Source: an uncultured Actinomycetes bacterium (GTDB taxonomy: Bacteria > Actinomycetota > Thermoleophilia > Gaiellales > JAICJC01). Taken from it: a stretch of 64,000 bases of DNA. Positions 21,132-40,272 of this stretch are shown here, piece after piece; position 1 is the stretch's first letter; each line of letters opens with the position of its first letter. Under the pieces are notes generated by a model that saw only the letters and a program-made list of their open reading frames with translations, was not told where the DNA came from and made no database searches. The position numbers and the translations under genes are program-made. The stretch spans positions 537,531 to 601,530 of the forward strand of contig CAVWSF010000001.1 in NCBI GenBank assembly GCA_963757605.1, read 5' to 3'.

Positions 21132-21437
21132 CTACGCGAGGTCTGCGACGGTGCGGCCCGAGGCCGCGAGCGCGGCCACGAACCGGCGCATGCCCGGGTC
21201 GGCGGCACACGGCAGGAGCGCCACCTCGTAGCCGCCGTCGAGGAGGGCCATCACCTGGTCGACGATCGCGGCAACCAGCGGATGGGCGACGTCGGCGGGC
21301 AGGGTCGCCGGCGGCAGCGCGACGACGCCCCAGCCGCTGAGCGCGAGGTCGCTCAGGCGGTCGCGGGCGCCCTCCGGCGGGTTCACGACCACGTCGGGCA
21401 CCACGACGACCCGGCGCGAGCGCGCGTCACCCCGCAT
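21132..21437 (-). CDS. small acidic protein of unknown function, partner of the TudS-like gene (copy 1)
   Basis: ATG 21437 overlaps the upstream gene's end by 11 nt. Paralog of 32529-32870, sharing DAR..RV, (V/L)NP, WG...LP, PL(V/L) and GY blocks. Confidence 0.6.
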   Translation of the reverse strand: MRGDARSRRVVVVPDVVVNPPEGARDRLSDLALSGWGVVALPPATLPADVAHPLVAAIVDQVMALLDGGYEVALLPCAADPGMRRFVAALAASGRTVADLA

Positions 21438-21987
21438 CGCCGGCCCCCTCCCCGAACATCGCGTCGAGCTTCGCCAGCTCCTTCGCCTCGTCGTAGTCGA
21501 ACAGATCCTGGCCAATGCCGACCGCACGGACGTGCAGGATGACGCCGGAGAGCAGATCGAGCAGCGTCTCGGTGAAGAGGCCCGCCCCGAGCGTGACCGG
21601 GTAGTCCTCGTCGCGCGGCTTGTCGGGCCGCCCGCCCCACTCCGGGCTGGCCGCCGTCAGCTCGACTCCCATGCTCGGGCTGCCGTCGATCCCGATCACG
21701 ATCACCCGGGCGCCGGTCGCCAGGTCGGCCCGGATCTGGGCGGCGACCGGCTCGGCCAGGCGGCGGCAGTGGGCCCGGTAGACCGGCGTGTCGTACTGCT
21801 CGCGCACCGCCCAGAAGCGGCTCGTGCCGCCGAAGGCGAGCTCCGGGCACGGCATCTGCCGGATCGTGCAGTCGTGATCGCGAAGGAGCGCCAGGACCGG
21901 CGAGGAGACGCCCTGGCAGCGGGCGCCCTCGTCGACCTTGGCGTTCGCGTTCAGGAGGCAGTGGGCCAGGTAGCAGACCGTCTTCAT
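21427..21987 (-). CDS. divergent TudS/DUF523-like Cys-rich protein (copy 1)
   Basis: 186 aa. The ATG overlaps the upstream stop (ATGA). Blocks are AHCLLN, GARC, QMPCPELAF and GIDGSPSMGV, in the same order as the DUF523 CLLG / CPE / SPSCG motifs. Paralog of 31983-32528. Confidence 0.7.
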   Translation of the reverse strand: MKTVCYLAHCLLNANAKVDEGARCQGVSSPVLALLRDHDCTIRQMPCPELAFGGTSRFWAVREQYDTPVYRAHCRRLAEPVAAQIRADLATGARVIVIGIDGSPSMGVELTAASPEWGGRPDKPRDEDYPVTLGAGLFTETLLDLLSGVILHVRAVGIGQDLFDYDEAKELAKLDAMFGEGAGDAG

Positions 21988-23012
21988 GGCACCATCACGA
22001 TCTTGCCGACGTGGCGGCGCTCGTCCATGTAGGCGTGGGCGTCCGCGGCCGCCGACAGCGGGAACGTGCGGTCGACTGGGACGGCGATCCGGCCGTCGAG
22101 CGCCATCCGAAGCGCGGTGCGGATCTCGTCCGGGGTCGCCATCCGGAAGCCGAGGATGCGGTGGCCGCGCCGGAAGAGCTCGATGACGTCGAGCCGCACC
22201 ACCTCGCCGGCGTGCGCGCCGCAGGTGACGAGTCGGCCGTCCGGCGCCATCGCCGCCAGGTGCTCCCCGAACCGCGGGCCGCCGGTGGTGTCGACGACGA
22301 CGTCCACCCCGCGGCCCTCGGTGGCCTCCGACACGACCTCGGCGACCGACGTCTCGCGGTAGCAGAAGACGACATCGGCGCCCAGCGCCCGCACCGGCTC
22401 GACCTTCTCGGGCGCTCCCACCGACGCGATCACCCGGGCGCCCGCGATCCGGGCGGCCTGGACGGCGGCACTCGCGACGCCTCCCGAGGCGGAGGGCACG
22501 AGCACCGTCTCGCCGGCCCGGACGGCGGCGACGCTCACGATCATCGACCACGCCGTCGAGGCCACGCACTGGGCGGCCGCCGCGGGCACGAGCTCGTCCT
22601 CCCCACGCAGCGGGATCACGGCCCGGGCGGGCACGACCGCGAGCTCCGCGTAGCCGCCCCAGCGGTCGGTGCCGAACACCACGAAGCGCTCACACAGGTC
22701 CTGCCGCCAGCGCGCGCACGCCGGGCACGCGCCGCACGCGTACTGCTGGTAGGCGGTCACCGGGTCGCCAGGCGAGATCCCCTCGACCTCCACGCCGACC
22801 GCCGCGACCGTCCCGGCGAACTCGGCGCCGAGCACCCACGGGAGCGGGAACGGCCACCGCGACGTCCCGGCGCGGGAGTCGAGGTCGCTGTGGTTCAGGC
22901 CGCACGCGCGCACCTCGAGGATCACCTCGTCGGCGGCCGGCACGGGGTCGGCGAGCTCCTCCCAGCGCAACACCTCGGGCCCGCCGTACTCGCGAAACGC
23001 CGCCGCGTGCAC
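21984..23012 (-). CDS. zinc-type MDR alcohol dehydrogenase / oxidoreductase
   Basis: 342 aa. GroES-like N-terminus with a Cys cluster (CGACPAC) and a Rossmann segment VPSASGGVASAAVQ. Confidence 0.8.
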   Translation of the reverse strand: MHAAAFREYGGPEVLRWEELADPVPAADEVILEVRACGLNHSDLDSRAGTSRWPFPLPWVLGAEFAGTVAAVGVEVEGISPGDPVTAYQQYACGACPACARWRQDLCERFVVFGTDRWGGYAELAVVPARAVIPLRGEDELVPAAAAQCVASTAWSMIVSVAAVRAGETVLVPSASGGVASAAVQAARIAGARVIASVGAPEKVEPVRALGADVVFCYRETSVAEVVSEATEGRGVDVVVDTTGGPRFGEHLAAMAPDGRLVTCGAHAGEVVRLDVIELFRRGHRILGFRMATPDEIRTALRMALDGRIAVPVDRTFPLSAAADAHAYMDERRHVGKIVMVP

Positions 23013-23015
23013 CGA

Positions 23016-25791: not shown

Positions 25792-27011
25792 AGGAGCGAC
25801 CTCAGGGTCCCGGTGAGGACCGCGATCGCGGCGGCGATATCGGCCTCGCTTGAGAGCTCGTCGGGGCGGTGGCTCACGCCCCCGTTCAGGCTGCGCACGA
25901 AGAGCATCCCGGCATCGACTCCGGCGGCGGCCAGGATCCCCGCGTCGTGGCCGGCGCCCGAGGCCATCTCGGCGACCGGCACGCCTGCGCTGCCCGCTGC
26001 CGACTGGACGGCGGCTCGGACGCGCGGCGAGAGCGACACCGGCTCCGAGCGCCAGGCGCGGACGGCGTCGACCCCGCACCGGTTCCGGGTGGCGACCTCG
26101 GCGGCGACGGCGGGCACGGCCGCGACCAGGAGGTCGAGCGCGGCCGCCGACGGGGCGCGCACGTCGACGGTCGCCCGCACGACGCCGGGGATCACGTTCG
26201 CGGCCGGCTGCGCGATCGCCACGTCGCCGATGGTGGCCACGGCGCCGGGCACCTCGAGCGCCCGCTCGCGCAGGCGCACCGCGAGGTCGGCGCAGGCGGC
26301 GAAGGCGTCGCTGCGGCCGGCCATCGGCACCGTGCCGGCGTGGCCGGACGCGCCCCGGAACGTCACGTTGAAGCCGGCCATCCCGGCGATCGCCGTGACG
26401 TCGGCGAGCGCGTAGCCGGCCGTGTCGAGCGCCGGCCCCTGCTCGATGTGCACCTCGACGTACGCCGCCGGCAACGTGACGTCGACCGGTGGGCCGGGCA
26501 GGCCGAGTGCGGCCAGCGCCTCCTCGATGGTGACCCCCGCGGCGTCGGCGCGGGCCAGCCCGACGGGCCCGACCTGGCCGGCGACGCTGCGGCTTCCGAA
26601 GCAGCCCTCCCCGAACCGCCAGCCCTCCTCGTCGCGGAAGACGACGACCGCGAGCGGCGCGCCGGGTGCGTCGTCTGCGACCGCCGCGACGGCCTCGATC
26701 GCGGCGACGACGCCGAGCGCGCCGTCGAAGCGGCCGCCCGACGGCACGGTGTCGACGTGCGAGCCCGACCAGACCACACCGGCGGCCGGAGCGCCGGACG
26801 GCCGCGCGTACAGATTCCCCGCCGAGTCGCGTGAGACCGCCATCCCGTCCTCCTCGCACCAGGCGGCGACGAGCGCGTGGGCCTCGTCCTCGAGGACGCT
26901 CAGCCCGGGCCTGGTGATCCCGCCGCTTTGGCCGTCGGAGCCCACACGGGCGAGGAGGTCGAGCCTTTCCATCGCCCTCTCAGCGCGCGGGATGCTGGTG
27001 ATCTGCTCCAT
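25788..27011 (-). CDS. M20 ureidohydrolase (N-carbamoyl-L-amino-acid hydrolase / allantoate amidohydrolase type)
   Basis: 407 aa with blocks SGSHVDTVPSGGRFDGALGV, EEGWRFG, GHAGT.PM and SGAGHDAG. Confidence 0.85.
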   Translation of the reverse strand: MEQITSIPRAERAMERLDLLARVGSDGQSGGITRPGLSVLEDEAHALVAAWCEEDGMAVSRDSAGNLYARPSGAPAAGVVWSGSHVDTVPSGGRFDGALGVVAAIEAVAAVADDAPGAPLAVVVFRDEEGWRFGEGCFGSRSVAGQVGPVGLARADAAGVTIEEALAALGLPGPPVDVTLPAAYVEVHIEQGPALDTAGYALADVTAIAGMAGFNVTFRGASGHAGTVPMAGRSDAFAACADLAVRLRERALEVPGAVATIGDVAIAQPAANVIPGVVRATVDVRAPSAAALDLLVAAVPAVAAEVATRNRCGVDAVRAWRSEPVSLSPRVRAAVQSAAGSAGVPVAEMASGAGHDAGILAAAGVDAGMLFVRSLNGGVSHRPDELSSEADIAAAIAVLTGTLRSLL

Positions 27012-27029
27012 GGGCCGGCGCGGTAGACT

Positions 27030-27056
27030 CGTCCATCATAATGGTTGTGATGGACG
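27030..27056. promoter_or_regulatory. candidate operator: perfect inverted repeat CGTCCATCA-N9-TGATGGACG
   Basis: 9-bp arms with an AT-rich spacer TAATGGTTG. It is centred in the 58-bp divergent gap between the M20 operon (which includes the TetR gene) and the SDR gene. Confidence 0.5.
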
Positions 27057-27069
27057 GGACGTAGCCGCC

Positions 27070-27852
27070 GTGGATCTCGGGCTCAAGGGATGCGTTGCGA
27101 TCGTCGGCGGGGCATCGTCCGGCATGGGCCGGGCCTGCGCCGTGGCGCTCGCACGGGAGGGCTGCAACGTCGCGGTCTTCGCCCGCCGGCGCGAGCTCCT
27201 CGACGAGGTGGTCGCCGAGATCGAGGCCCTCGGGAGCGGCGCGCAGGCGCTCGCGGTCGCCGGCGACTCGGCGCTTCCCGCCGACCTCGAGGCGCTGGTC
27301 GAGCGGACGCTCGAGCGCTTCGGCCGGCTCGACATCGTCGTCAACAACACCGGCGGCCCGCCCGCGGGGACGTTCGAGGACTTCGACGACGACGCCTGGC
27401 GTCGGGCCTGGGACCTGACGCTCATGTCGACGCTGCGCCTGACCCGGCTCGCCCTTCCGGAGCTCCGAAAGAGCGGCCGCGGCCGGGTCGTCAACATCAC
27501 CTCGTCGGCGGTGAAAGAGCCGAACGAGGGCCTCCTGCTCTCGAACACCTACCGGCCCGGCGTGATCGGCTGGGCCAAGACGCTGTCGCAGGACGAGGGC
27601 CCGCACGGCGTCACCGTGAACTCCATCGCTCCCGGCTTCATCGACACCGAGCGGATGAAGAACCTCTACGCCGGCGGCGCCGACCCCGAGGGCGACCGCA
27701 CCCGTGACGAGGCGCTGATCCCGGCCCGCCGGTTCGGCGACCCGGCCGAGATCGGCGACCTGTGCGCGTTTCTCTGCTCGACCAACGCCGCCTACCTGAA
27801 CGGCATCACCGTCCTCATGGACGGCGGCCTGGCGAAGGGGCTTCTGAGCTGA
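27070..27852 (+). CDS. SDR family oxidoreductase
   Basis: GTG 27070. Blocks VGGASSGMG, NNTGG and the Y...K context (SNTYRPGVIGWAKTL). Confidence 0.8.
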   Translation: MDLGLKGCVAIVGGASSGMGRACAVALAREGCNVAVFARRRELLDEVVAEIEALGSGAQALAVAGDSALPADLEALVERTLERFGRLDIVVNNTGGPPAGTFEDFDDDAWRRAWDLTLMSTLRLTRLALPELRKSGRGRVVNITSSAVKEPNEGLLLSNTYRPGVIGWAKTLSQDEGPHGVTVNSIAPGFIDTERMKNLYAGGADPEGDRTRDEALIPARRFGDPAEIGDLCAFLCSTNAAYLNGITVLMDGGLAKGLLS

Positions 27853-28632
27853 GCGGCCGGCTGGCCGGCAAGTCCGTCGTGGTCACGGGCGGCTCGTCGG
27901 GGCTCGGCCGGGCGATGTCGCTCGCGTTCGCGCGCGAAGGCGCCGACGTGGTGATCGGCGACGTGCGCGAGGATCCGCGCGAGGGCGGACGGCCGACGGT
28001 CGAGCTGATCGCCGAGGCGGGCGGGAGCGGCGTCTTCCTCGAAGCGGACGCGGGCCGCTGGGACGACATCGACCGGCTGGTGCGAACGGCGGTCGAGCGG
28101 CGCGGACGGCTCGACGTCGATGGTTCCGAACGCGATCGTGGCCGGGCCGCACTCCAGAGGGCTCCTCGACACGACCGAGGAGGACTGGGACGCGATGATG
28201 CACGTCGGCCTGCGCGGCGTCTTCCTCTGCTGCAAGCGCGCCGTCCAGCAGATGCTCGGCCAGGAGCCGGTCGCCGAGGCCCGCGGCCGGATCATCAACA
28301 TCTCCTCGCAGCACGGCATGATCGGCGCGCCCGGCCACGTGGCGTACTGCACGGCCAAAGGGGGAATCGTCAACCTGACCCGCCAGCTCGCGGTCGACTT
28401 CGGCCCGCAGGGCATCATCGTGAACGCCATCGCCCCCGGAAAGATCCTGACCCGGCCTGCCGACGAGCCCGACTCGCCGGAGGTGCTCGCCTACTCGCAT
28501 GCGCGCACGCCGTTCGCGCGGCTGGGCCGGCCCGCCGACGTGGCGGCCGCGGCCGTCTTCCTGGCCTCCGACGAGTGCACCTACGTGAGCGGTACGAACC
28601 TCATGGTGGACGGCGGCTGGATGGCCTACTGA
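27849..28632 (+). pseudogene. SDR family oxidoreductase, frameshift near 28117
   Basis: The N-terminal part (GKSVVVTGGSSGLGRAMSLAFAREGADVVIGD...GRLDV) is in one frame. The rest (MVPNAIVAG...SSQHGMIGAPGHVAYCTAKGG...LMVDGGWMAY) is in another. Paralog of the intact 31183-31953 gene. The start codon is unclear (CTG 27849 or GTG 27762). Confidence 0.7.
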
Positions 28633-29582
28633 TGCGAGCGGCCGTGATCCACGAGCTGGGCGCGACGCCGGTCGTGGAGGAGCACGACGAGCCGGCCCGC
28701 GGCGAGGGCCAGGCGCTGGTCGAGACCGGCGCCGCCGGCGTGAACCCGGTCGATCTCGCGATCGGCGCCGGGGTCTTCTACGGCGGCCATCCGCCGCTCC
28801 CGTTCGTCGCAGGCCGGGAGGGCGCCGGGCGGGTGGTCGAGGGCGAGGCGTTCGCGCCCGGGACGCTCGTGGCCACGCTCAAGACGGCCACCGGATCCAT
28901 GGCCGAGCGGTTCGTCGCCGACGAGGCGGAGCTGTGGGAGATCCCGGGCGAGGCGGACCCGGTCGTTGCGACCGCGCTCGGCATCGCCGGCCTGGCGGGC
29001 TGGCTGGCGGTCGAGGAGCGCGGGCGCATCCAGGAGGGCGACCGCGTGCTCGTGCTCGGAGCCACCGGGACGGTGGGGTCGGTCGCCGTGCAGGCGGCCC
29101 GGCTCCTGGGCGCGTCGCGCGTCGTGGCGGCCGGCCGCGATCCGGCGCGGCTCGAGCGGTCTTTGCGGTTGGGAGCCGACGAGACGGTTACACTCAGCGA
29201 GGGGGACGCCGCGGAGGCATTCCGGGCCGTGTTCCGAGACGGCGGCCCCGACCTCGTCATCGACCCGCTCTGGGGGCCGCCGGCGCTGGCGGCGATCGCG
29301 ATCGCGCCGATCGGGATGCGGTTCGTGAACCTCGGCCAGTCGGCGGGCGCGTCCGTGGAGCTGGCGTCGGCAGCCGTGCGGGGCCGCCTGCTCGAGATCA
29401 TCGGCCACACGGTCTTCGAAGCCCCCCACGCCGACCTGGCCCGCGGGCACCGCGCCATGCTCGGCCACGTCGCCGCCGGCGAGCTCGAGGTCGACGTCGA
29501 GACCTACCCGCTGGAGCGGGCGGCCGAGGCCTGGGACGCGCAGCGCGCGGGGCCCGCGCACAAGCTGGTCGTCACGGTGTAG
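28632..29582 (+). CDS. MDR quinone-oxidoreductase-like protein
   Basis: 316 aa. The ATG overlaps the upstream TGA by 1 nt. Rossmann segment VLGATGTVGSVAVQ. No zinc Cys cluster. Confidence 0.8.
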   Translation: MRAAVIHELGATPVVEEHDEPARGEGQALVETGAAGVNPVDLAIGAGVFYGGHPPLPFVAGREGAGRVVEGEAFAPGTLVATLKTATGSMAERFVADEAELWEIPGEADPVVATALGIAGLAGWLAVEERGRIQEGDRVLVLGATGTVGSVAVQAARLLGASRVVAAGRDPARLERSLRLGADETVTLSEGDAAEAFRAVFRDGGPDLVIDPLWGPPALAAIAIAPIGMRFVNLGQSAGASVELASAAVRGRLLEIIGHTVFEAPHADLARGHRAMLGHVAAGELEVDVETYPLERAAEAWDAQRAGPAHKLVVTV

Positions 29583-30148: not shown

Positions 30149-31183
30149 CTACGGCGCGAGCAGCACGCGGCCGTAGTGCGCCCGCGTGGCCAGAAGCTCC
30201 TGCGCCCGCGCCGCCCCCTCGAGCGGCAGCACCGCCTCGATGGCCGGCGGGTCGACGAGGCCTTCGCCGAGCAGCCGGAAGACCTCCCACAGCTCCCGCC
30301 GCGACCCGTCGCTCGATCCGATGAGCGAGATCTGGCGGGCGAAGAGGTCGATCAGGTCGAGCTCGACGCGCGGGCCCGACGAGGCGCCGCAGAGGACGAT
30401 GCGGCCCGTGTTCGCAAGCGCGGCCAGCGCCTCCGGGACCGCGGCCGCGCCGACATGGTCGACGACCACATCGACGCCGCGGCCGCCGGTCAGCCGCCGC
30501 ACCTCCTGCCCCCACTCCGGCTGCGTGTAGTCGACCGCGTGCTCCGCGCCGGCGGCGAGCGCCCGCTCGCGCTTCTCGGCGCTCGACGCGGTGGCGAGGA
30601 CCCGCGCGCCGGCGAAGCGCGCCAGTGCGATCGCCGCGCCGCCCACGCCCGAGCCGGCCGCCGTCACCAGCACGGTCTCGCCCGCCCGGAGGCCGGCCCG
30701 CGCGAAGAGCATGTGGTAGGCCGTCAGGTAGACCGACCCCGCCGCGGCGGCCGTCTCGTACGACACGCCGTCGGGCAGCGCGAACAGGTTGCGGACCGGC
30801 GCGACAACGCGCTCGACGTACCCGCCGGGCCGGTTCACGCCCATGACCCCGTACTCGGCGCAGGCCGCCTCGTCGCCCTCCAGGCAGTAGGGACAGCGGC
30901 CGCACGAGAAGTCGTAGTGGACGTACACGCGGTCGCCGACCGCGACGGCTTCCACGCCCTCCCCCACCTCGACGACCTCGCCCGCCACGTCGTAGCCGGG
31001 CACGATCGGGAGGGTCGCGCCGTAGGCATGGCCGACGTCCTCGCGCACCCAGATGTCGAGCCGGTTCACGGCGACCGCCGCAACCCGGACGACCGCCTCG
31101 CCATGCCCCGGCGCCGGCTCCGGGAGCTCCTCGACGCGCAGCACCTCCGGCCCGCCGTGCTCGCGCATCACGATCGCGCGCAT
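30149..31183 (-). CDS. zinc-dependent MDR alcohol dehydrogenase
   Basis: 344 aa. Structural-zinc Cys cluster CGRCPYCLEGDEAAC and Rossmann segment VTAAGSGVGGAAI. Confidence 0.85.
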   Translation of the reverse strand: MRAIVMREHGGPEVLRVEELPEPAPGHGEAVVRVAAVAVNRLDIWVREDVGHAYGATLPIVPGYDVAGEVVEVGEGVEAVAVGDRVYVHYDFSCGRCPYCLEGDEAACAEYGVMGVNRPGGYVERVVAPVRNLFALPDGVSYETAAAAGSVYLTAYHMLFARAGLRAGETVLVTAAGSGVGGAAIALARFAGARVLATASSAEKRERALAAGAEHAVDYTQPEWGQEVRRLTGGRGVDVVVDHVGAAAVPEALAALANTGRIVLCGASSGPRVELDLIDLFARQISLIGSSDGSRRELWEVFRLLGEGLVDPPAIEAVLPLEGAARAQELLATRAHYGRVLLAP

Positions 31184-31953
31184 CAGTAGGCCATCCAGCC
31201 GCCATCGACCATCAGGTTGATGCCGCTCGTGTAGCTCGCCGGCCCCGCCAGGTACGAGACCGCGGAGGCCACGTCCTCCGGCCGGCCCAGGCGCGCGAAC
31301 GGCGTCCGCGAGCGCACGTACGCCAACCCCTCCTCGCTGGCGGAGAGGTCGCCCGCCGTGCCCGTCACGATCTTGCCGGGCGCGACCGCGTTGCACAGGA
31401 TCCCCTGCGGCCCGTAGTCGACCGCGATCTGGCGCGTCATCTGCACGAGCCCGCCCTTCCCCACGCTGTAGGCGAAGTGGCCCGGGCAGCCGACCATCCC
31501 GTGCTGGGACGTGATGTTCACGATCCGGCCGCGGACGTCGCCGTCGAGCGGCTGCTCGAGCATCCGCCGCACGGCCGCCCGGCAGAGCAGGTACGGCCCG
31601 CGCAGGTTGACGGCCATCATCGCGTCCCAGTCCTCCGGCTCCGTCTCGAGGAGCGGCTTCGAGTGCGCCCCTGCGAGGACCGCGTTGTTCACGACGACGT
31701 CGAGCGACCCGCACCGCTCCACCGCCGTCGCGACCAGGCGGTCGCAGTCCTCGGCCGACGACACGTCGGCGATCACGTGGACGGCGCTTCGGCCGGCCGC
31801 GCGGATCACGTCCTCGGTCGGCTCGCCGCCCGTGATCGGGTCGCGGCGGATGTCGCCCATCACCACGTCGAACCCGTCCTCGGCGAGCCGGATCGCCACG
31901 GCCCGGCCGATCCCCGACGCCGCCCCGGTCACGATCGCGCTGCGCTGACTCAT
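31183..31953 (-). CDS. SDR family oxidoreductase
   Basis: 256 aa with blocks TGAASGIGRA, NNAV and the YSVGKGG catalytic context. Ends GGWMAY with a TGATG junction to the MDR gene. Confidence 0.85.
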   Translation of the reverse strand: MSQRSAIVTGAASGIGRAVAIRLAEDGFDVVMGDIRRDPITGGEPTEDVIRAAGRSAVHVIADVSSAEDCDRLVATAVERCGSLDVVVNNAVLAGAHSKPLLETEPEDWDAMMAVNLRGPYLLCRAAVRRMLEQPLDGDVRGRIVNITSQHGMVGCPGHFAYSVGKGGLVQMTRQIAVDYGPQGILCNAVAPGKIVTGTAGDLSASEEGLAYVRSRTPFARLGRPEDVASAVSYLAGPASYTSGINLMVDGGWMAY

Positions 31954-31982
31954 GCCGATGCCACCTCCTGCATACTGACGCC

Positions 31983-32528
31983 ATGCCCGGCGTCGCGTTC
32001 GTCGCTCACTGCCTGCTGAACCAGAACTCGAAGACGCACGGCGGCGCGCGCTGCCCGGGCATCTACTCGCCGCTCGTGGAGGAGCTCCGCACCGCCGGCT
32101 GGCGGCTGGAGCAGATGCCGTGCCCGGAGCTGGCCTTCACCGGCCTTCACCGCTTCTGGGCGGTGAAGGAGCAGCTCGACACCGCGGCCTACCGCCGCCA
32201 CTGCCGCCGCATCGCCTCCGCGGTCGCCGCCGCGATCGAGGTGCACGTGCGCCGCGGCGACGACGTGATCCTCGTCGGCATCGAGGGCAGCCCTTCGATG
32301 GGCGTCCACATCACGAGCTCGGACCCCGACCGCGGTGGGCGGCCGGAGTGGCCGGACGGGTCGAGCGAGCTCTCGCCCGGAAGCGGCATCTTCATGGAGG
32401 AGATCGTCGCCGAGCTCACCGAGCGCGGCGTCGCCGCCCCGCGGGCGATGGGGATCTCCCACCAGCTCCCCGATCACGACCCGGACGCCGAGCGCGCCCG
32501 GCTCCGCGACCTGATGGGGACCGCCTAG
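31983..32528 (+). CDS. divergent TudS/DUF523-like Cys-rich protein (copy 2)
   Basis: 181 aa with blocks AHCLLNQN, GARC, QMPCPELAF, HCRR and GIEGSPSMGV. Paralog of 21427-21987. Confidence 0.75.
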   Translation: MPGVAFVAHCLLNQNSKTHGGARCPGIYSPLVEELRTAGWRLEQMPCPELAFTGLHRFWAVKEQLDTAAYRRHCRRIASAVAAAIEVHVRRGDDVILVGIEGSPSMGVHITSSDPDRGGRPEWPDGSSELSPGSGIFMEEIVAELTERGVAAPRAMGISHQLPDHDPDAERARLRDLMGTA

Positions 32529-32870
32529 GTGGACACCGACGCCCGCTGCTTCCGCGTCGCGCTCGTCGCCGGCGAGCTCCTGAACCCCGTCGCCGGGGAG
32601 CTCGACGCGCTCTCGGTGCTCGAGCAGGAGGAGTGGGGCGCGATCCAGCTCCCCGCGGCCGACTACCCGGACGAGGTGGCCGGGCCGCTCCTGGAGCAGG
32701 TCGCCGAGCAGGCCGAGGAGTTCGTGCGGAACGGCTACACGCTCACGGTGATCCGCGGCCGGGCAGGCCTCGACGAGGCGCTCGCACGGGTCGGCGTCGC
32801 CGCACCGCCCGCGTGTGCTCCCGAGACGGCCGACGAGCTGCGGGCGTTCCTGGCGGAGGCCTGCAGGTGA
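32529..32870 (+). CDS. small acidic protein of unknown function, partner of the TudS-like gene (copy 2)
   Basis: The GTG start directly abuts the upstream TAG. 113 aa. Paralog of 21132-21437. Confidence 0.6.
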   Translation: MDTDARCFRVALVAGELLNPVAGELDALSVLEQEEWGAIQLPAADYPDEVAGPLLEQVAEQAEEFVRNGYTLTVIRGRAGLDEALARVGVAAPPACAPETADELRAFLAEACR

Positions 32871-32874
32871 GGAC

Positions 32875-33621
32875 GTGACGGCGCGCGCGCTGGTGACAGG
32901 CGCGGCGTCGGGGATCGGCCGGTCGACCGCCGTCCTGCTCGCCGAGCGCGGAGCCGCCGTCGCGTGCCTCGACGTGAACGCGGCCGGGCTGGACGAGACC
33001 GCAGCGGCGATCGGCGAGCACGCCGTTCCCATCCCGTGTGATGTGACCGACCTCGCCGCGGTCGAGGCCGCGGTGTCGCAGGCGGCCGCCGAACTGGGCG
33101 GCCTGGACGCGGTCGCCAACGTCGCCGGCGTCGGCGACTTCACCGGCGACGTCGCCGAGATCGCACCCGAGGAGTGGGCGCGCGTCCTGGCGATCAACCT
33201 GAACGGGCCGTTCCACGTCTCCCGCGCGGCGATCCCGCACCTGCGCGCGGCCGGCGGCGGGGCGATCGTGAACGTCAGCTCGCAGTTCGGGCTGGTCGGG
33301 TGCCTGGCGAGCCCGGCGTACTGCGCCTCGAAGGCGGGACTCATCGGCCTCACCCGGGCGATGGCGATCGACCACACGTCGGAGGGCATCCGCGTGAACT
33401 GCGTCTGCCCCGGCCCGGTCGACACGCCGATGCTGGCCTGGACCGACGCGACCCCCGAGCTCACGGCGCGCGAACGCGGGCGGACGCAGGGCCGCAACCT
33501 GAGCGGCCGCTCCGGCCGGCCCGCGGAGATCGCCGCCACCATCGCCTTCCTGCTCTCGGACGACGTCGGCTTCATGTCGGGCAGCATCGTCGCCGTCGAC
33601 GGCGCCTGGACGGCGGGGTAG
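32875..33621 (+). CDS. SDR family oxidoreductase
   Basis: GTG 32875 follows AGGTGAGGA. Blocks TGAASGIGR, and the YCASKAG catalytic context. Confidence 0.85.
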   Translation: MTARALVTGAASGIGRSTAVLLAERGAAVACLDVNAAGLDETAAAIGEHAVPIPCDVTDLAAVEAAVSQAAAELGGLDAVANVAGVGDFTGDVAEIAPEEWARVLAINLNGPFHVSRAAIPHLRAAGGGAIVNVSSQFGLVGCLASPAYCASKAGLIGLTRAMAIDHTSEGIRVNCVCPGPVDTPMLAWTDATPELTARERGRTQGRNLSGRSGRPAEIAATIAFLLSDDVGFMSGSIVAVDGAWTAG

Positions 33622-33628
33622 CCCGGAG

Positions 33629-34978
33629 TCACGCGGGCTGGAGCACGCGGCCGACGGGCAGGTACTCGCCGCGGTGCTCCTCGCCGACGAAGCGGCCGTC
33701 GGCGACCACGTGCTCGCCGCGGGCCAGGACGTCGCGCACCCGGCCGGGCACCTCGATGCCCTCGTACGGCGTCCAGTCCAGGCCGTCGTTGATCGCCTCG
33801 AGCGTGAGCCTGACCGGCGCGGCGGGGTCCCAGACGACGACGTCGGCATCGCTCCCCGGGGCCAGCACCCCTTTCCGCGGATAGAGCCCGAAGATGCGCG
33901 CCGGCTGCGTGCACGCCGCGTCGACCAGCCGCTCGACCGCGAGCGGATCGCCGCCTCCGAGCGCGAACCCGAGCGGGAGACGAGCGCCGATGCCGGGCAG
34001 GCCGGTCGGGATCTTCGTGAAGTCGCCCTGCACCGGCACCTTGTCGCGGTCGAGCCGCAGGTGGCAGTGGTCGGAGGCATAGGTCGTGACGTCGCCCGAT
34101 CGCAGGCCGTCCAGGAGCGCGGCCCGGTCGGCGGCCTCGCGCAGCGGCGGCGTCATCACGTAGCGCAGGGCGTCGGGCCCCTCGTGATCGGAGCGCTCGA
34201 AGAGCAGGTGGTGCGGGCACACCTCGGCATGGACGGTCTGGCCGCGGCGGCGGGCGGCGCGGATCTCGTCGAGCGGCGCGCGGCCGGTGACGTGGACGAC
34301 GTAGGGCGTCGCTCCCGCGAGGCCGGCGAGCACCAGGAACCGGTGGACGCACTCCGCCTCGAGCTCGATCGGCCGGCTGGCGGGGAGCGAGTCGAGGCCG
34401 AGCTCGCCGGCCTCGACCCGCTGTCGGGTGAGGAGGTCGACGGCGCGGCCGTTCTCGCAGTGGGCGAGCACGACAACGCCGAGGTCGGCCGCCTCCTGCA
34501 TCACGGCCAGGGCGACGTCGTCGTCGGCCATGATCCCGAGCTCGACGTAGGCCAGCCACAGCTTGACGCTCCCCACCCCGAGCGCCGCGGTCTCGGCGAG
34601 GTCGCCGCGCCGATAGGCCGCCGGCTCCCAGATCACCGCGTGGAAGGCGAGGTCGATGTGCGACTCGGGCACCTCGTCGGCCAGCGTCCGCCGGGCCGCC
34701 TCGGCCGGCCGCTCGCCGGGCAGCGCGTCGACGAAGGCGAGGGCGGAGGTGGTGCCGCCGCAGAGCGCAGAGCGCGAGTCGTCGCCGAGGCCGCCGAACG
34801 GGTGCGTGTGGACGTCGATCGCGCCCGGCAGGACGAGGCAGCCGCTCGCGTCGACGACCTCGGCGCCGGAGCGGTCGACCGCCCCGATCTCGACGACCCG
34901 GCCGCCGTCCACCAGCACGTCGGCCGGCACCGACCCGTCCGGCCCGACGACCGTGCCGCCGGCGATCACCGTCGCCAC
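33629..34978 (-). CDS. D-hydantoinase / dihydropyrimidinase family amidohydrolase
   Basis: 449 aa. HxH block (AIDVHTHP), Lys context (VGSVKLWLAY), LAHCENG and the Asp block ASDHCH. The GTG overlaps the upstream TAG by 1 nt. Confidence 0.85.
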   Translation of the reverse strand: MATVIAGGTVVGPDGSVPADVLVDGGRVVEIGAVDRSGAEVVDASGCLVLPGAIDVHTHPFGGLGDDSRSALCGGTTSALAFVDALPGERPAEAARRTLADEVPESHIDLAFHAVIWEPAAYRRGDLAETAALGVGSVKLWLAYVELGIMADDDVALAVMQEAADLGVVVLAHCENGRAVDLLTRQRVEAGELGLDSLPASRPIELEAECVHRFLVLAGLAGATPYVVHVTGRAPLDEIRAARRRGQTVHAEVCPHHLLFERSDHEGPDALRYVMTPPLREAADRAALLDGLRSGDVTTYASDHCHLRLDRDKVPVQGDFTKIPTGLPGIGARLPLGFALGGGDPLAVERLVDAACTQPARIFGLYPRKGVLAPGSDADVVVWDPAAPVRLTLEAINDGLDWTPYEGIEVPGRVRDVLARGEHVVADGRFVGEEHRGEYLPVGRVLQPA

Positions 34979-36777
34979 TAGCCCACCGCCCGGTCGGGCA
35001 GGCAGGGCGCGGCGCCCAGCAGCCGCCGGGTGTAGTCGTCGGAGGGCGTCGAGAGGACGTCCTGGACCGCGCCCGACTCGCACAGCGAGCCGCGGTCCAT
35101 CACGAGCACCGAGTCGCTCACGCACGCCACGACGCCCAGGTTGTGGGTGATGAAGAGCATGGAGAGGTGCAGCTCGCGCTGGAGCTCGGCGAGGAGCTCG
35201 AGCACCGCCGCCTGGACCGAGACGTCGAGCGCCGAGGTCACCTCGTCGCACACCAGGAGGTCGGGCTTGGCCGCCAGCGCCCGGGCGATCGCCACCCGCT
35301 GGCGCTCGCCGCCGGAGAGCTCGACCGGATACCGCTCGGCCACCCGCGCCGGCAGCCGCACGCGCTCGAGCAGCGTCGACACCTCGCCGGCGGCGTCCGC
35401 CCGCGACAGCCGGCGAAGGACGCGCAGCGGGCGCTCGATCGAGGCGCCCACCCGATGGCGCGGGTTCAGCGACTCGAACGGGTTCTGGAAGACGATCTGG
35501 ATCCGGCGGCGCTGGTCGAGCGCCCGGTCCCGGGCCGATCCGTCCAGCTCCTGGCCGTCGAAGACGATCCGCCCAGCTGTCGGCACGTGCAGGCCGGCGA
35601 TGCAGCGGCCGATCGTGGTCTTGCCGCTTCCGGACTCGCCGACGAGCGCCACGCACCGGCCGGCCTCGATCGCGAACGACACGTCGCGGACGGCGACGTT
35701 GCGGCCCCGGCCGGAGCGGTACTCGACCGCGAGCGCCGACACCTCGAGCAGCGGACGCCCAGCGGCCGCCGGCGCGGCGGCCCGGGCCCCTCCCGAACCG
35801 GACTCCGTGAGCTCGAGCTCGTCCCAGCGGACGCACCGCACCGAGTGGGCGGCGGAGGCCTCCTCCAGCGCCGGCACGGCGGCCTGGCAGCGCTCCTGCG
35901 CGAACGAGCACCGCGGCGCGAAGGAGCACCCCGGGGGCCACTCGCCCACCCCCACCGCGACGCCCGGGATGCCCTGGAGCGCCCGCGGGCGGCGCACGTC
36001 CGGGATGGCGCCGACCAGCGCGCGCGTGTACGGGTGCCGCGGCCGCCCGATCACCTCGTCGACCGGCCCGTGCTCCACCACCCGCCCGGCGTACATGACG
36101 GCGATCCGGTCGGCCATCCGGGCCACCACGGCGAGGTCGTGGGAGACATAGACCATCGCCATCCCCTCCTCGCTGCGAAGCCGCATGAGCTCGGTGAGGA
36201 TGCGGTCCTGGGTGAGGACGTCGAGGCCCGTCGTCGGCTCGTCGAGCACCGCCACGGGCGGGCCGCACACGCACGCCATCGCGATCGTGACCCGCTGCTG
36301 CTGACCGCCGGAGAGCTGGTGCGGGAAGCGACGGGCGAAGCGCGGGTCGGCGCCCAGCTCGACGCGCTCGAGCGCCGTGTGGACGGAGTCGTGCGAGGCC
36401 GCGTCGGAGCGGTGCGCGCGCAGGACGTCCATGATGGCGTCGCCCACCCGAAGCGACGGGTTGAGCGCGCCGCCCGGATCCTGGGGGACGTACGAGACCA
36501 CGCGCCCGCGCAGGCTGCGGACAGCCCGGGCGCCGCTGCCCAGTATGGCCTCGCCGCCGACCTCGACCGACCCGCCCCGCAGGACGACGCCGGGGCGCGT
36601 GTAGCCGAGGAGCGCGAGCGCGGTCGTCGTCTTGCCGCTTCCGGACTCGCCGACGAGCCCGAGGATCTCGCCCGCGCCCACGGCGAAGCTCACGTCCTGC
36701 ACGACCGGATCGCCGCTCGTGAGCTCCAGGCACAGGCCCTCGACGCGGACGACCGGACCGCCGCCGTCGCCGCTCAC
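34978..36777 (-). CDS. ABC transporter ATP-binding protein, fused double ATPase (DppD/DppF type)
   Basis: 599 aa with two complete sets: Walker A (GESGSGKTT twice), signature (LSGGQQQRV / LSGGERQRV) and Walker B (LDEPTTGLD / VCDEVTSALD). Confidence 0.9.
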   Translation of the reverse strand: MSGDGGGPVVRVEGLCLELTSGDPVVQDVSFAVGAGEILGLVGESGSGKTTTALALLGYTRPGVVLRGGSVEVGGEAILGSGARAVRSLRGRVVSYVPQDPGGALNPSLRVGDAIMDVLRAHRSDAASHDSVHTALERVELGADPRFARRFPHQLSGGQQQRVTIAMACVCGPPVAVLDEPTTGLDVLTQDRILTELMRLRSEEGMAMVYVSHDLAVVARMADRIAVMYAGRVVEHGPVDEVIGRPRHPYTRALVGAIPDVRRPRALQGIPGVAVGVGEWPPGCSFAPRCSFAQERCQAAVPALEEASAAHSVRCVRWDELELTESGSGGARAAAPAAAGRPLLEVSALAVEYRSGRGRNVAVRDVSFAIEAGRCVALVGESGSGKTTIGRCIAGLHVPTAGRIVFDGQELDGSARDRALDQRRRIQIVFQNPFESLNPRHRVGASIERPLRVLRRLSRADAAGEVSTLLERVRLPARVAERYPVELSGGERQRVAIARALAAKPDLLVCDEVTSALDVSVQAAVLELLAELQRELHLSMLFITHNLGVVACVSDSVLVMDRGSLCESGAVQDVLSTPSDDYTRRLLGAAPCLPDRAVG

Positions 36778-37623
36778 GCCGGCACGCTCCTCGTCGTCCG
36801 GGGGACGTACGAGCGCCCGAGGCTGCGGGCGATCGCGTCGCCCATCAGGTTGACCCCGATGGTGAGCAGGGCGATCATCGCCGCCGGCGCCAGCACCGCC
36901 CACACGTTGAGCGCGATGTACTCGCGGTTCTCGCTGATCAGGAGCGCCCAGTCGGAGGCCGGCGGCTGCAGGCCGAGGCCGAGGTAGTTGACCGAGGCGA
37001 TGATGAGGATCGAGTAGGTGAAGCGCAGGCCGGCGTCGACCAGGACGGGCGCGAGGATGTTCGGCAGCACCTCCCGGACGACGACGGCGGCGGCCCGCTC
37101 GCCGCGGGCGACGGCCGCCTCGACGTAGCCGCGCACCGTCACCTCGAGGGTCGCCGTGCGGACGATGCGGCTGATGCTCGGGGCCTGGATCGCCGCGACC
37201 CCGATGACGAGGACGCCGACCCCCGAGCCCGCGCCCGTGATGAGCACGAGCAGGAAGAGGAGCGGCGGGAAGGCCAGCATCACGTCGACGGTACGCATCA
37301 GGATCGGGTCGACCTTGGAGCGGCTGTAGCCGGCGATGAGCCCGATCGCGAGGCCGATCGCGTAGCCCAGGACGGTCGCGGCCGCGGCCAGCCCGATCAC
37401 CGACCGGCCGCCGTAGAGGAGCCGGCTCAGGACGTCGCGGCCGAGGAAGTCGGTGCCGAGGTGGGCCGCCGACGACGGGCCGGAGAGCGGCGTCCCGACC
37501 GGCACGTTGGGGTCGTGCGGCGCGACGTAGCGGCCGAAGAGCGCCACCACGACCACGAAGACCACGACGGCCAGCCCGATCGCGCCCGAGCGGATCCGCA
37601 GGAAGCGGAACGCCGCCGCTCAC
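36774..37623 (-). CDS. ABC transporter permease (DppC/OppC type), apparent frameshift at the extreme 5' end
   Basis: The intact body runs from 37565 downward (the ORF track's MVFVVVVALFGRYVAPHDP...). The real N-terminus FRFLRIRSGAIGLAVVVF is in frame but has no start codon after the TGA at 37620-37622. A GTG at 37623 (GTGA overlap with the upstream gene) is 1 nt out of frame. Confidence 0.7.
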
Positions 37624-38633
37624 GCCGGCTCCCTGAGCTTGGGGACGAGCAGCATCACGATCAGGTCGGCAAGCAGGTTCAGGAAGACGTAGACGACCGC
37701 GATCATCATCGCCACCGACTGGACGAGCGTGAGGTCGCGGTTCCCGACCGCCGTCACGAGCGTCGTCCCGATCCCGGGGTAGGCGAAGACGTTCTCGGTG
37801 ATGATGATGCCGCCGATCAGCCACTGGAGGTTCTGGGCCAGGACCTGCACGCTGGGGGCGAGCGCGTTTCGCATCGCGTAGCGCCACAGCACCCACCGCT
37901 CGGCGAGCCCGTTCAGCCGCGCGGTCTGCACGTACTCGGTCTGGAGCACCTCGACCATGCCGGCCCGCACCATCCGGATCCCGGCCGCGAGCGACGCCAG
38001 AAGCAGCGTCGCAACCGGAAGAACAAGCTTCTTCGGGTCGCTGAGCGGGTTGTCTCCGGGCGGGATGAGCGCGACGGGCGGGAGCACGTCGAGCCAGACG
38101 AAGAAGACCCCCACCAGGAGCGACCCGATGACGAACTCGGGCAGCGCGATCGCCGCCAGCGACGCGATCGAGACGGCGTGGTCGATGGCCCGCCCCGCGT
38201 AGACGGCCGCGAGGGCGCCCAGGCCGAGCGAGAGCGGGATCATGAAGAGCGCCGTCACGAGCGCCAGGATCAGGCTGTTCTTGACCTGGTTCGAGATCAG
38301 GTCCCACACGGGGGCGTGCTTCTGCCCCTGCGCGAGCCCGACCGACGAGTCGCCGAGGTCGCCGTGGACGAAGCCGCCGAGCCAGCTCGTGTACTGCTCG
38401 AGGAGCGGGCGGTCGAGGTGCATCCGCTCGTCGAGGGTGTGCACGGCCTGCGGCGTGGCGCCGCGGCCGAGGACGACGCTCGCCGCGTCGCCGGGCAGCA
38501 CCGCCGTCCCGACGAAGATCAGCACCGACGCCACGAAGAGCGCGAGCACGGCGCCGATGAGCCGCCGCCCGAGGAACACGAGCACGGGCGAGGCCTCGCG
38601 GGACGCCCGCCGAGGCTCCGCCACCGCTGTCAT
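37620..38633 (-). CDS. ABC transporter permease (DppB/OppB type)
   Basis: 337 aa with 6 TM helices and an EAA-like loop (YVQTARLNGLAERWVLWRYAMRNA). Confidence 0.9.
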   Translation of the reverse strand: MTAVAEPRRASREASPVLVFLGRRLIGAVLALFVASVLIFVGTAVLPGDAASVVLGRGATPQAVHTLDERMHLDRPLLEQYTSWLGGFVHGDLGDSSVGLAQGQKHAPVWDLISNQVKNSLILALVTALFMIPLSLGLGALAAVYAGRAIDHAVSIASLAAIALPEFVIGSLLVGVFFVWLDVLPPVALIPPGDNPLSDPKKLVLPVATLLLASLAAGIRMVRAGMVEVLQTEYVQTARLNGLAERWVLWRYAMRNALAPSVQVLAQNLQWLIGGIIITENVFAYPGIGTTLVTAVGNRDLTLVQSVAMMIAVVYVFLNLLADLIVMLLVPKLREPA

Positions 38634-38643
38634 CGAGCCCGTC

Positions 38644-40272
38644 TTACGCCGTGAGCCACGCGTTCATGAAGAGGTAGTTGCCGAGCACTCCGCCGGGGTG
38701 CGGCGCGAGCCCCTTCAGCTTGGTCGACACGCCGTCGACCCAGTCCGCGTTCGTCCAGTTCAGGTAGCCGCCCTGGTCCCACTGGATCTGCTGGACCTGG
38801 TTCCAGGTGTCCTGCGCTGCCGTGGGGTCGGTCGTGCCGATCGCCTTGAACAGAAGGTCGTTCCAGCTCTTGTCCTTCCAGTGCGTCTCGTTGTACGGCG
38901 CCTGGGCGGAGAGCGACTGGAGGTAGAAGAACTTGAGCGACGGGATGGGCCACTGCGTCTCGGCGAACGCCATCTTCAGGTAGAGCAGCGACGGGTTGTA
39001 GTACGAGTTGGGCGGCACCTGCTTGAGCTGGATCGTGACGCCCGCCGCCTTGGCCTGCTGCGCGAGCAGCGTAGCCGCCTCGACGAAGCCGGGGAAGATC
39101 GGCGACGTGCGCAGGAGCACCGTCAGGTTCTCCTGGCCGGCCTTCTTCAGGAGGCTCTTGGCCTGGTCGATGTCCTGCTCGCGCTGCGGCAGGCCGGTGT
39201 TGTAGAACGGCAGGCCCTTGCCGAAGATGTCGTTGCCGACCGTTCCGAACCCGTTGATCGCGCTGTCGACGAGCGCCTTGCGGTCGGCGATGAGCCGGAT
39301 CGCCTGGCGCACGTTCACGTCGGTGAACGGCGCCTGCGTGGTGTCCATGTAGAACATCATGGCCTGGGGCGAGGGCGCGATCAGCACCGTGATGTCGCCG
39401 GTCGTCTGGTGGGCCTTGGCCTGGGCGGTCGGGAGCTGCGCCATCGCGTCGATGTCGCCGTTCAGGAGCGCGTTCAGGCGGGCGGTGTTGTCGTCGATCG
39501 ACTGGATCGTGAGCGCGTCGACGTACGGCTTGCCGGTGATCCAGTAGTTGGGGTTCTTCTTGAACGAGCTCTGCTCGCCGGGCTTGAACGAGTCGAACAT
39601 GAAGGGGCCGGTACCGACCGGCTTCGTGAAGTCGGTCTCGCCGTCCTGGACGATCCACGTGTTCCAGTAGACGAAGTTGGCGCCCAGGTCGGCATCCGGG
39701 AACTTGAGCGGGATGCGGACCGTGGTCGGGCTCAGGGCCTTCAGCCCGTTCAGGTCGATGCCGGCCACGAACGGCACCGACGCGAAGTTGGCGGGCTTGG
39801 ACATGAGCCGGATCGAGTAGATGAGGTCCTCGGCGCCGAAGGTCTTGCCGTTGTGGAACTCGACTCCCGGCCGCAACTTGACCTCGTACTCGGTCGCGTC
39901 GGCGTTGGCGTTCATCTCGAGCGCGAGGCCGGGGCTCGTGGTCAGGTCGGGGTTCTGCACGAAGAGCGGATCGAAGAGGTTCTGCACCCGCGACTCGTCG
40001 ATCGGGGTCACGCCGGCGTACGGGTTCAGCGTCTCGGCCGTGCCGCCGCCGACGAACCCGGCGCGGATCGTGCCGCCCCGGACGGGCTTGCCGCCGCCGG
40101 TCGAGGCGGCGCCGCCGGAGCCGCCTCCGCCGCTCCCGCCGCATGCGGCGGCCAGGAGCGGGGACATCCCGACCATCGCGCCGGCCGCTCCACGCAGGAG
40201 CGTCCCGCGCGAGAGGCGGAAGCCTTCAGTCTCGGTGCCCGAGGGCGCGTGTGGGTGGTTCGGGTCGGTCAC
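38644..40272 (-). CDS. ABC transporter substrate-binding lipoprotein, family 5 (peptide/nickel type)
   Basis: 542 aa. Signal peptide with lipobox LLAAAC followed by a Gly/Ser linker. Family-5 SBP body. Confidence 0.9.
   Translation of the reverse strand: MTDPNHPHAPSGTETEGFRLSRGTLLRGAAGAMVGMSPLLAAACGGSGGGGSGGAASTGGGKPVRGGTIRAGFVGGGTAETLNPYAGVTPIDESRVQNLFDPLFVQNPDLTTSPGLALEMNANADATEYEVKLRPGVEFHNGKTFGAEDLIYSIRLMSKPANFASVPFVAGIDLNGLKALSPTTVRIPLKFPDADLGANFVYWNTWIVQDGETDFTKPVGTGPFMFDSFKPGEQSSFKKNPNYWITGKPYVDALTIQSIDDNTARLNALLNGDIDAMAQLPTAQAKAHQTTGDITVLIAPSPQAMMFYMDTTQAPFTDVNVRQAIRLIADRKALVDSAINGFGTVGNDIFGKGLPFYNTGLPQREQDIDQAKSLLKKAGQENLTVLLRTSPIFPGFVEAATLLAQQAKAAGVTIQLKQVPPNSYYNPSLLYLKMAFAETQWPIPSLKFFYLQSLSAQAPYNETHWKDKSWNDLLFKAIGTTDPTAAQDTWNQVQQIQWDQGGYLNWTNADWVDGVSTKLKGLAPHPGGVLGNYLFMNAWLTA

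Follow-up and report, generated by a model that had tools for sequence, protein, structure and literature searches.

Two TudS-like genes with methionine at the position of a cluster-ligand cysteine, and their putative degenerate partner genes, in an uncultured member of the Gaiellales

Work on the desulfidase TudS reportedly revealed a non-redox role for a [4Fe-4S] cluster bound by three cysteines, that of sulfide acceptor, and to our knowledge the same three cysteines are used in all relatives studied (TudS, RudS). TudS is a monomer in which Tyr18 stacks on the uracil and Arg17 binds the phosphate. Its three-cysteine ligation, which the first-pass annotation of the DNA discussed here had put forward, is described for TudS_A, where the cluster is bound by Cys10, Cys43 and Cys104 and catalysis proceeds via Glu45, Ser101 and Ser103 (PMC10611767). 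For RudS, Arg60 of RudS_KT has been identified as catalytic (PMC11417400). The present analysis concerns two TudS-like genes, termed A and B, in a stretch of 64,000 nucleotides from an uncultured Actinomycetes bacterium of the Gaiellales (contig CAVWSF010000001.1, positions 537,531 to 601,530), referred to below as the window. Both genes encode methionine at the position of the third ligand, and each is followed by a small partner gene that appears to be a degenerate paralog of the TudS-like domain itself.

Gene A (31983..32528, plus strand) encodes a PF27735-type protein of 181 amino acids (aa) with methionine at residue 106, and gene B (21427..21987, minus strand) encodes a protein of 186 aa that is 47% identical to it. 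Gene B is the only paralog detected when the 64-kb window is searched with protein A by tblastn (minus strand, 47% identity, E 2e-48). Protein A has the N-terminus MPGVAFVAHCLLNQNSKTHGGARCPG, followed by EQMPCPELAF and YRRHCRR, and contains the segments VGIEGSPSMGVHIT and VGIEGSPSMGVH; the segment of protein B in the tblastn alignment is IGIDGSPSMGVELT. Both copies possess GSPSMGV together with Cys10 (AHCLLN), Cys24 (GARC), Cys47 (MPCPE) and Cys74 (HCRR), which confirms the initial reading of SPSMG in both paralogs and of the cysteines of CLLN, PCPE, GARC and HCRR as common to them. The ATG codon of Met106, at the position of the TudS cluster ligand Cys104, is located at 32298..32300 in gene A (plus strand) and at 21670-21672 in gene B. 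The other codons of interest in gene A, all on the plus strand, are those of Cys10 (32010-32012), Cys24 (32052-32054), Cys47 (32121-32123), Glu49 (32127-32129), His73-Cys74 (32199-32204) and Ser103-Pro-Ser105 (32289-32297).

Correspondence to TudS was determined by aligning 81 family members with eight genuine DUF523 proteins taken from annotated plasmid and chromosome records, including an Aeromonas caviae ortholog 90% identical to a TudS_A fragment; a 42-aa TudS fragment searched against a set of 5.8 billion proteins returned truncated proteins only and no full-length DUF523 protein. The hhalign comparison (probability 96.5%, E 7.7e-10, 128 aligned columns) places Cys10, Cys47 and Met106 in the columns of the three invariant DUF523 cysteines, with Met106 on TudS Cys104. 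Glu49, Ser103 and Ser105 correspond to TudS Glu45, Ser101 and Ser103, and Arg57 to the invariant catalytic Arg of RudS. As Glu49, Arg57, Ser103 and Ser105 are invariant or nearly so across all subtypes of the family, TudS-like chemistry is to be expected. The DUF523 residue opposite Cys74 is the invariant Thr of the 'DVT' motif, in an alignment that runs with one gap to the SPSxG motif; Cys74 lies within the first turns of the helix that leads to strand beta3, in a stretch dense in invariant residues (Arg57, Glu63, Gln64, Asp66, Thr67 and Arg71). A hidden Markov model (HMM) of the 81 members, compared with PDB sequences, has TudS (6z92 and related) as its top match, at a weak score (E 0.28), and aligns 'gSPScG' on TudS 'GSPSCG' (residues 100-105) and 'ahClLNq...PCPE' on 'SACLLGQ...FCPE'; a single-sequence search of the PDB with protein A gave spurious de novo-design matches only. 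The two alignments thus agree that SPSMG stands at the SPSCG position, a check that had been proposed together with the initial reading. The AlphaFold2 (AF2) model of protein A has a mean predicted local distance difference test score (pLDDT) of 94 and a predicted template modelling (TM) score of 0.90. In a Foldseek search with this model, five TudS chains rank 1-5 (probability 1.0, E 5e-5 to 3e-4, TM score 0.50-0.59), and TudS is the only strong PDB match, the next matches having E>0.01.

The TudS-like character of the proteins was correctly recognised in the first-pass annotation, but the label DUF523 does not hold. DUF523 (PF04463) proper was rejected: hmmscan against Pfam-A gives no family at E<=1, and the relationship is detected by profile-profile comparison only. 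The copy of Pfam-A that was scanned lacks the PF27735 model, and PF27735 was read from the precomputed annotation of homologs, where it appears as '2-thiour_desulf_put' on proteins up to 97% identical. The model NF045597, 'CD3072 family TudS-related putative desulfidase', matches A with E 1.7e-33 (115.5 bits) and B with E 5.1e-31 (107.4 bits), both scores lying under its curated cutoff of 130 bits. Judged by these models, A and B probably belong to PF27735 / NF045597 (CD3072), a sister family of DUF523. A literature search turned up no publication on this family, under CD3072 or PF27735, or on any other sister family related to TudS. Arg17 and Tyr18 of TudS are aligned with Lys17 and Thr18 (Val in most relatives), and NQNSKT stands instead of VRYDG. 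Since the residues that bind uracil and phosphate are not kept, the substrate would be neither 4-thio-UMP nor thiouracil, and the annotated function of 'putative 2-thiouracil desulfurase' seems unlikely as regards its substrate.

An exhaustive search of 1.84 billion cluster representatives identified 617 relatives. Among 96 near-full-length representatives, residue 106 is Cys in 66, Met in 15, Ser in 6, Asp in 3, and Thr and Leu in 2 each. In a genome scan, relatives were found to be encoded on 347 species-level contigs. The top matches (93% identity) come from metagenome-assembled genomes of Gaiellales/Thermoleophilia, and other carriers are Solirubrobacterales, Acidimicrobiia, Streptosporangiaceae, Dormibacterota and Chloroflexota, mostly aerobic soil lineages. 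Genome counts given here refer to the best 80 of the 347 species-level loci together with the two window copies (n=82). All 82 sequences possess Cys10, Cys47, Glu49, Arg57, His73, Cys74, Ser103, Pro104 and Gly107; residue 106 is Met in 80 and Leu in the remaining two, and Cys24 is present in 80, there being two genomes without Cys24 that possess Met106. About 40 positions are invariant among 10 diverged Met-type sequences of one alignment, the ratio of nonsynonymous to synonymous substitution rates (dN/dS) of the catalytic gene against close orthologs is 0.11-0.22, and A and B are located in separately conserved subclades of a neighbour-joining (NJ) tree. Selection rather than decay of the residue 106 variant, which had been proposed from the two paralogs, is thereby established at the level of sequence comparison. 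The Met is indeed in both paralogs but is not specific to them: loss of Cys106, to Met or Leu and, in a sister clade, to Ser or Thr, appears to mark out a large clade of soil bacteria in the Actinomycetota, Dormibacterota and Chloroflexota. Met106 as a ligand in its own right was considered and rejected, as Leu takes its place in several lineages that keep everything else; the Met/Leu exchange points to a hydrophobic filler at residue 106 rather than a sulfur ligand. Two closely related metagenome loci, L120 (3150-4110, SPSCG) and L121 (4971-5951, SPSSG), both carry the partner gene and share all else. They differ in this respect at residue 106 only, so that Cys106 would have become dispensable within a lineage, and they may be regarded as a natural transitional pair.

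To compare candidate replacement ligands, 368 near-full-length sequences were pooled into 149 clusters at 80% identity and split by residue 106. The 77 Cys106-type clusters have Cys10 in 75, Cys47 in 77, Cys74 in 64, His73 in 32 and Cys24 in none. The 60 Met/Leu-type clusters have Cys10, Cys47 and His73 in all 60, Cys74 in 59 and Cys24 in 48 (otherwise Arg in 6, Thr in 5 and Ala in 1). The nine Ser/Thr-type clusters all possess Cys10, Cys47, Cys74 and His73, and one of them possesses Cys24. Clusters without Cys106 thus have Cys74 in 68/69 and His73 in 69/69, against 64/77 and 32/77 in clusters with Cys106 (Fisher tests, with phylogeny ignored: p=0.0014 for Cys74 and p=5e-17 for His73). From these counts the His73-Cys74 dyad appears dispensable where Cys106 is present and invariant where it is absent. 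The two extra cysteines pointed out at the outset fare differently under this comparison: Cys74 is present in both paralogs but is not peculiar to them, 83% of Cys106-type members having it as well, and Cys24 seems confined to the non-Cys106 clade, yet is clearly optional there. An early impression of strict complementarity between Cys24 and Cys106 was overturned by the cluster counts and by the metagenome sample, in which 29/80 loci are Met-type with Arg24 ('C-R-C-C-M'). The suggestion that the ligand set has been rewired, with GARC or HCRR taking the third position, accordingly survives in one of its two forms. HCRR (Cys74), invariant when Cys106 is absent, is favoured by these patterns as the replacement third ligand over GARC (Cys24), which is missing in 12/60 Met-type and 8/9 Ser/Thr-type clusters.

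The second character of the clade is a partner gene, which the initial reading had overlooked. Partner A (32529..32870, plus strand, 113 aa) has a GTG start directly after the TAG stop of gene A, and partner B (21132..21437, minus strand, 101 aa) shares 11 nt with the 3' end of gene B; the two are 36% identical over 75 aa (E 2e-10). At 79/80 genome loci a co-directional partner follows the catalytic gene immediately, in most cases with no gap or with an overlap of a few nt, and Ser/Thr-type members have one beside them too. Among metagenome loci with enough flank it is found at 51/52 non-Cys106 genes versus 2/15 Cys106 genes (p=6e-11), and its presence thus tracks the loss of Cys106 across the family. 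The homology of the partner to the catalytic subunit is detected by profile comparisons alone: hhalign gives 93.9% (E 1.6e-7), the partner HMM matches Cys-type catalytic proteins to about 1e-12, and the family HMM matches partner open reading frames (ORFs) at about 4e-11. The partner keeps beta1 (RVALVAD.LVNP), beta2 (WG.IQLP), the long helix and beta3 (GY.VVLVG), and is without Cys10, Cys47, Glu49, the 57-74 segment (His73-Cys74 included) and the SPSxG loop. By its profile it is a shortened and degenerate paralog of this domain, presumably catalytically dead. No Pfam family covers it, and all sources examined call it 'hypothetical'; its dN/dS of 0.20-0.34 indicates purifying selection, and its AF2 model has a pLDDT of 92. 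Donation of a Cys ligand in trans by the partner was rejected, as no Cys reaches 10% in any column of an 83-sequence partner alignment. Genes A and B both show the three characters of the subclade: a residue other than Cys at 106, His73-Cys74, and a co-directional downstream degenerate paralog.

The explanation tentatively preferred is that the Fe-S site has been retained, with Cys74 replacing the lost third ligand, in a heteromer with the dead paralog; we place it a little short of an even chance. Genes A and B would be the catalytic subunits of a two-gene module, consisting of a PF27735 protein of TudS fold and a small, coupled, dead paralog. The ancestral third ligand, the SPSCG cysteine where strand beta3 ends, would have been abandoned, and a bulky hydrophobic residue, Met or sometimes Leu, would stand in its place. 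Cys10, Cys47 and Cys74 would hold the metal site, most likely a [4Fe-4S] cluster in which one iron is open to the substrate; Cys74 would do so as a member of the dyad with His73, with which the long helix begins. Cys24 would be accessory; it might serve as a fourth or substitute ligand, or act as a partner in redox or persulfide chemistry. The chemistry would resemble that of TudS, with water mediating an attack, free of redox change, on a C=S or similar group that the free iron binds. According to the conservation patterns, rebuilding of the metal site is more probable than its loss.

Several points weigh against this explanation. Cys74 is already present in most Cys106-type members (64/77), and its convergence with Cys10 and Cys47 is predicted from alignment to the DUF523 positions and from conservation. 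Cys106 may, judging from the NJ tree, have been lost in one or a few events, and the Fisher p-values overstate independence. PF27735 is without characterised members, and a cluster even in the Cys106-type proteins is assumed. The heteromer of catalytic protein and pseudo-subunit is suggested by gene linkage only; a Foldseek search with the partner model gave generic flavodoxin/CheY-like matches only and no specific TudS match. The neighbourhoods are variable as well, with a hydantoinase-type gene at 35/80 loci only.

If Cys24 of GARC rather than Cys74 had become the third ligand, Cys74 would have some other, family-wide role, for example as a catalytic thiol or persulfide carrier. Cys24 is indeed found only where Cys106 is absent (0/77 Cys-type versus 48/60 Met-type clusters, and 80/82 genome orthologs), and it lies in the loop after strand beta1 that is part of the TudS substrate pocket. 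Arg, Thr or Ala nevertheless occupies its place in 12/60 Met-type clusters, as Arg does at the 29/80 metagenome loci of the form 'C-R-C-C-M', and 8/9 Ser/Thr-type clusters are without it. The forms that lack Cys24 keep the other conserved residues and the partner gene, and in two genomes it is lost with Met106 kept; replacement by Cys24 is thus considered quite unlikely. A similarly low weight is given to a cluster held by Cys10 and Cys47, either alone or with a ligand other than Cys (His73, His9, a carboxylate or water), Cys74 being no ligand at all. Such sites have a precedent in the active C47A variant of RudS_TT and in a Bacteroides fumarase without the third Cys (PMC11417400), and His73 becomes invariant once Cys106 is lost (69/69 versus 32/77). 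Against them, Cys74 is present in 68/69 clusters of the non-Cys106 clade, a constraint at least as strong as that on the two ligands not in dispute. As helix neighbours, His73 and Cys74 are unlikely to bind one site together, and incomplete ligation would be fragile in mostly aerobic soil hosts.

The absence of any Fe-S cluster would be a more radical departure. Cys10, Cys47 and Cys74, with His73 or His9, would then form a mononuclear Zn/Fe site or a metal-free thiol site with chemistry other than that of a desulfidase. The loss of the canonical ligand to a hydrophobic Met or Leu is in keeping with this, as are the aerobic soil bacteria that host Met-type genes, the neighbouring hydrolases and dehydrogenases without a sulfur-metabolism signature, and the absence from Met-type proteins of the substrate-binding Tyr18 of TudS. 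However, the TudS catalytic set, which acts in concert with the free cluster iron, is invariant in its entirety (Glu, Arg and Ser-Pro-Ser). SPSCG and SPSSG are also both found among close relatives, which argues for functional continuity, and the three invariant cysteines equal the number of TudS ligands. A site of this kind is held to be unlikely, though it deserves to be kept in view. Finally, the change from Cys to Met might mark decaying or non-functional duplicates, as it removes a defining ligand and the window has two copies of the gene. This is already contradicted by the conservation data and is regarded as very improbable: dN/dS is 0.11-0.22, the 10 diverged Met-type sequences have about 40 invariant positions, none of the key residues varies across the 80 genomes, relatives are present on 347 genome contigs, and A and B belong to separately conserved subclades. 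The true pseudoenzyme of the system would be the partner gene, which is very different in look. In the interpretation of the initial reading as a whole, the match of position, the selection and the rewiring, now the best supported of its options, have stood; the DUF523 label has not, and the spread of the Met beyond the two paralogs had not been foreseen.

Gene B is embedded in a cluster on the minus strand with the order M20, TetR, amidohydrolase, racemase family, alcohol dehydrogenase-like, gene B and partner B. The ATG of gene B overlaps the stop of the upstream zinc-dependent alcohol dehydrogenase (Zn-ADH) / quinone-oxidoreductase-like gene (ATGA), which is located at 21984..23012 with an uncertain start codon and is translationally coupled to gene B. 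Upstream of it are a gene of the Asp/Glu/hydantoin racemase family (23028-23750), an allantoinase/hydantoinase-type cyclic amidohydrolase (23750-25159, TIGR03178 just above cutoff), a TetR regulator (25159-25791) and an M20 'hydantase'/carbamoylase-type amidase (25791-27023). Gene A has two divergent neighbours on the minus strand, a Zn-ADH-like gene (30149-31186) and a short-chain dehydrogenase/reductase (SDR) gene (31183-31953). The start of the latter (31953, minus strand) and that of gene A (31983, plus strand) are 29 bp apart, so close that two promoters with their leaders would scarcely fit; this suggests that the transcripts lack leaders or that the starts are misplaced. Downstream of partner A are another SDR gene (about 32869-33621, plus strand), a convergent dihydropyrimidinase/hydantoinase-like amidohydrolase (33629-34978, minus strand) and, beyond it, an Opp/Dpp-type ATP-binding cassette (ABC) transporter (34978-40188, minus strand). 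The window thus contains two parallel gene sets (21984-27023, minus strand, versus 30149-34978), each with a Zn-ADH-like gene, a TudS-like gene, a partner and a cyclic amidohydrolase, and it looks as if they arose by an old duplication of a whole catabolic module. The hydantoin-racemase-family gene, the M20 carbamoylase-type amidase and the TetR regulator are extras of cluster B. The region 26416-29582 (plus strand) has additional SDR and Zn-ADH-like coding segments, with SDR domains at about 27090-27840 and 28087-28629 and an alcohol dehydrogenase at 28638-29582. The GC content of the window is 70-75%, and its real genes are overlapped on both strands by spurious ORFs of great length; lists of ORFs alone are therefore unreliable here. 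ARAGORN detected no tRNA gene in the 64-kb window, nor did any Rfam family reach its gathering threshold there.

The neighbours encountered at the 80 genome loci are SDR (52), SBP5 of an ABC importer (39), hydantoinase-like (35), Zn-ADH (30) and M20 (15) genes, and unsupervised clustering of neighbour ORFs revealed further recurring families, judged by eye to be a PuuE-like deacetylase and an SMP-30-like protein. These genes suggest the catabolism of an imported N-heterocycle or ureide. A distant Cys106-type member, P0148 (L011/L012/L013), stands beside a dihydroorotase (DHOase)-like amidohydrolase and an M20 peptidase, a context that hints at a link to cyclic-amide metabolism older than the loss of Cys106 and extending to anaerobes; an ornithine/aspartate carbamoyltransferase-like gene and an aldehyde:ferredoxin oxidoreductase are also present there. 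The 13 Cys-type metagenome loci of at least 4 kb show no similarity to the neighbour genes of the window. The two amidohydrolases (23750-25159 and 33629-34978) and the M20 protein (25791-27023) have sub-threshold matches to ErtD and ErtE, beside the allantoinase/dihydropyrimidinase models. ErtD is the hydantoin-5-propionate amidohydrolase and ErtE the N-carbamyl-L-glutamate amidohydrolase of ergothioneine utilisation, a pathway that includes a thiohydantoin desulfuration step. A thiohydantoin-type substrate, prompted by this sub-threshold similarity, is a speculation, and a literature search on the idea found nothing relevant.

A large natural clade has thus dropped one ligand Cys of TudS and kept the whole catalytic set. 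With a tighter constraint on another His-Cys pair and an obligate dead paralog, it offers a natural experiment in ligand migration and pseudoenzyme recruitment. That the TudS superfamily tolerates the loss of one Cys ligand is indicated by the C47A result for RudS_TT (PMC11417400). The whole PF27735 family is uncharacterised, and A and B represent a conserved, selected variant within this sister family of TudS. A bolder extension, which we think unlikely but attractive enough to state, would see in these genes an unrecognised heteromeric Fe-S class of TudS fold, in which the third ligand moved from the beta3 loop (SPSCG) to the His-Cys dyad of the next helix once a duplication had given rise to a pseudo-subunit without a cluster, the open iron was re-oriented, and a new pocket at the interface of the subunits receives an imported heterocyclic thione or ureide. 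The substrate of such a class, for instance a thiohydantoin-like compound, would be fed to the adjacent hydantoinase/carbamoylase pathway in aerobic soil Actinomycetota.

Compared with known systems, A and B share with TudS (PF04463; PDB 6Z92/6Z96) the fold, the first and second of the cluster cysteines, and the catalytic residues, which comprise Glu, Ser-Pro-Ser and an Arg that corresponds to Arg60 of RudS. They differ from it in the Met at Cys104, in Tyr18 and Arg17, which are not kept, and in the His-Cys dyad at the invariant Thr of DUF523. TudS is monomeric, whereas genes A and B each have an obligate adjacent paralog gene; the gene context of A and B would be ureide or heterocycle catabolism rather than nucleotide salvage. 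Cys106-type members of PF27735 are 30-50% identical to A and B and have AHCLLNQN, QxPCPE, EQYDT..R.HC and GSPSxGV in common with them, but they keep SPSCG, have His73 and Cys74 partly conserved, never possess Cys24, and are mostly without the partner (13/15 loci). RudS, a TudS-DUF1722 fusion that acts as tRNA s4U desulfidase, resembles A and B in joining a TudS-type domain with the same catalytic residues to a second, non-catalytic module. There is no indication of a tRNA substrate for A and B, unlike RudS, and where the module of RudS is DUF1722, the accessory module of A and B would be a separate polypeptide derived from the catalytic domain itself.

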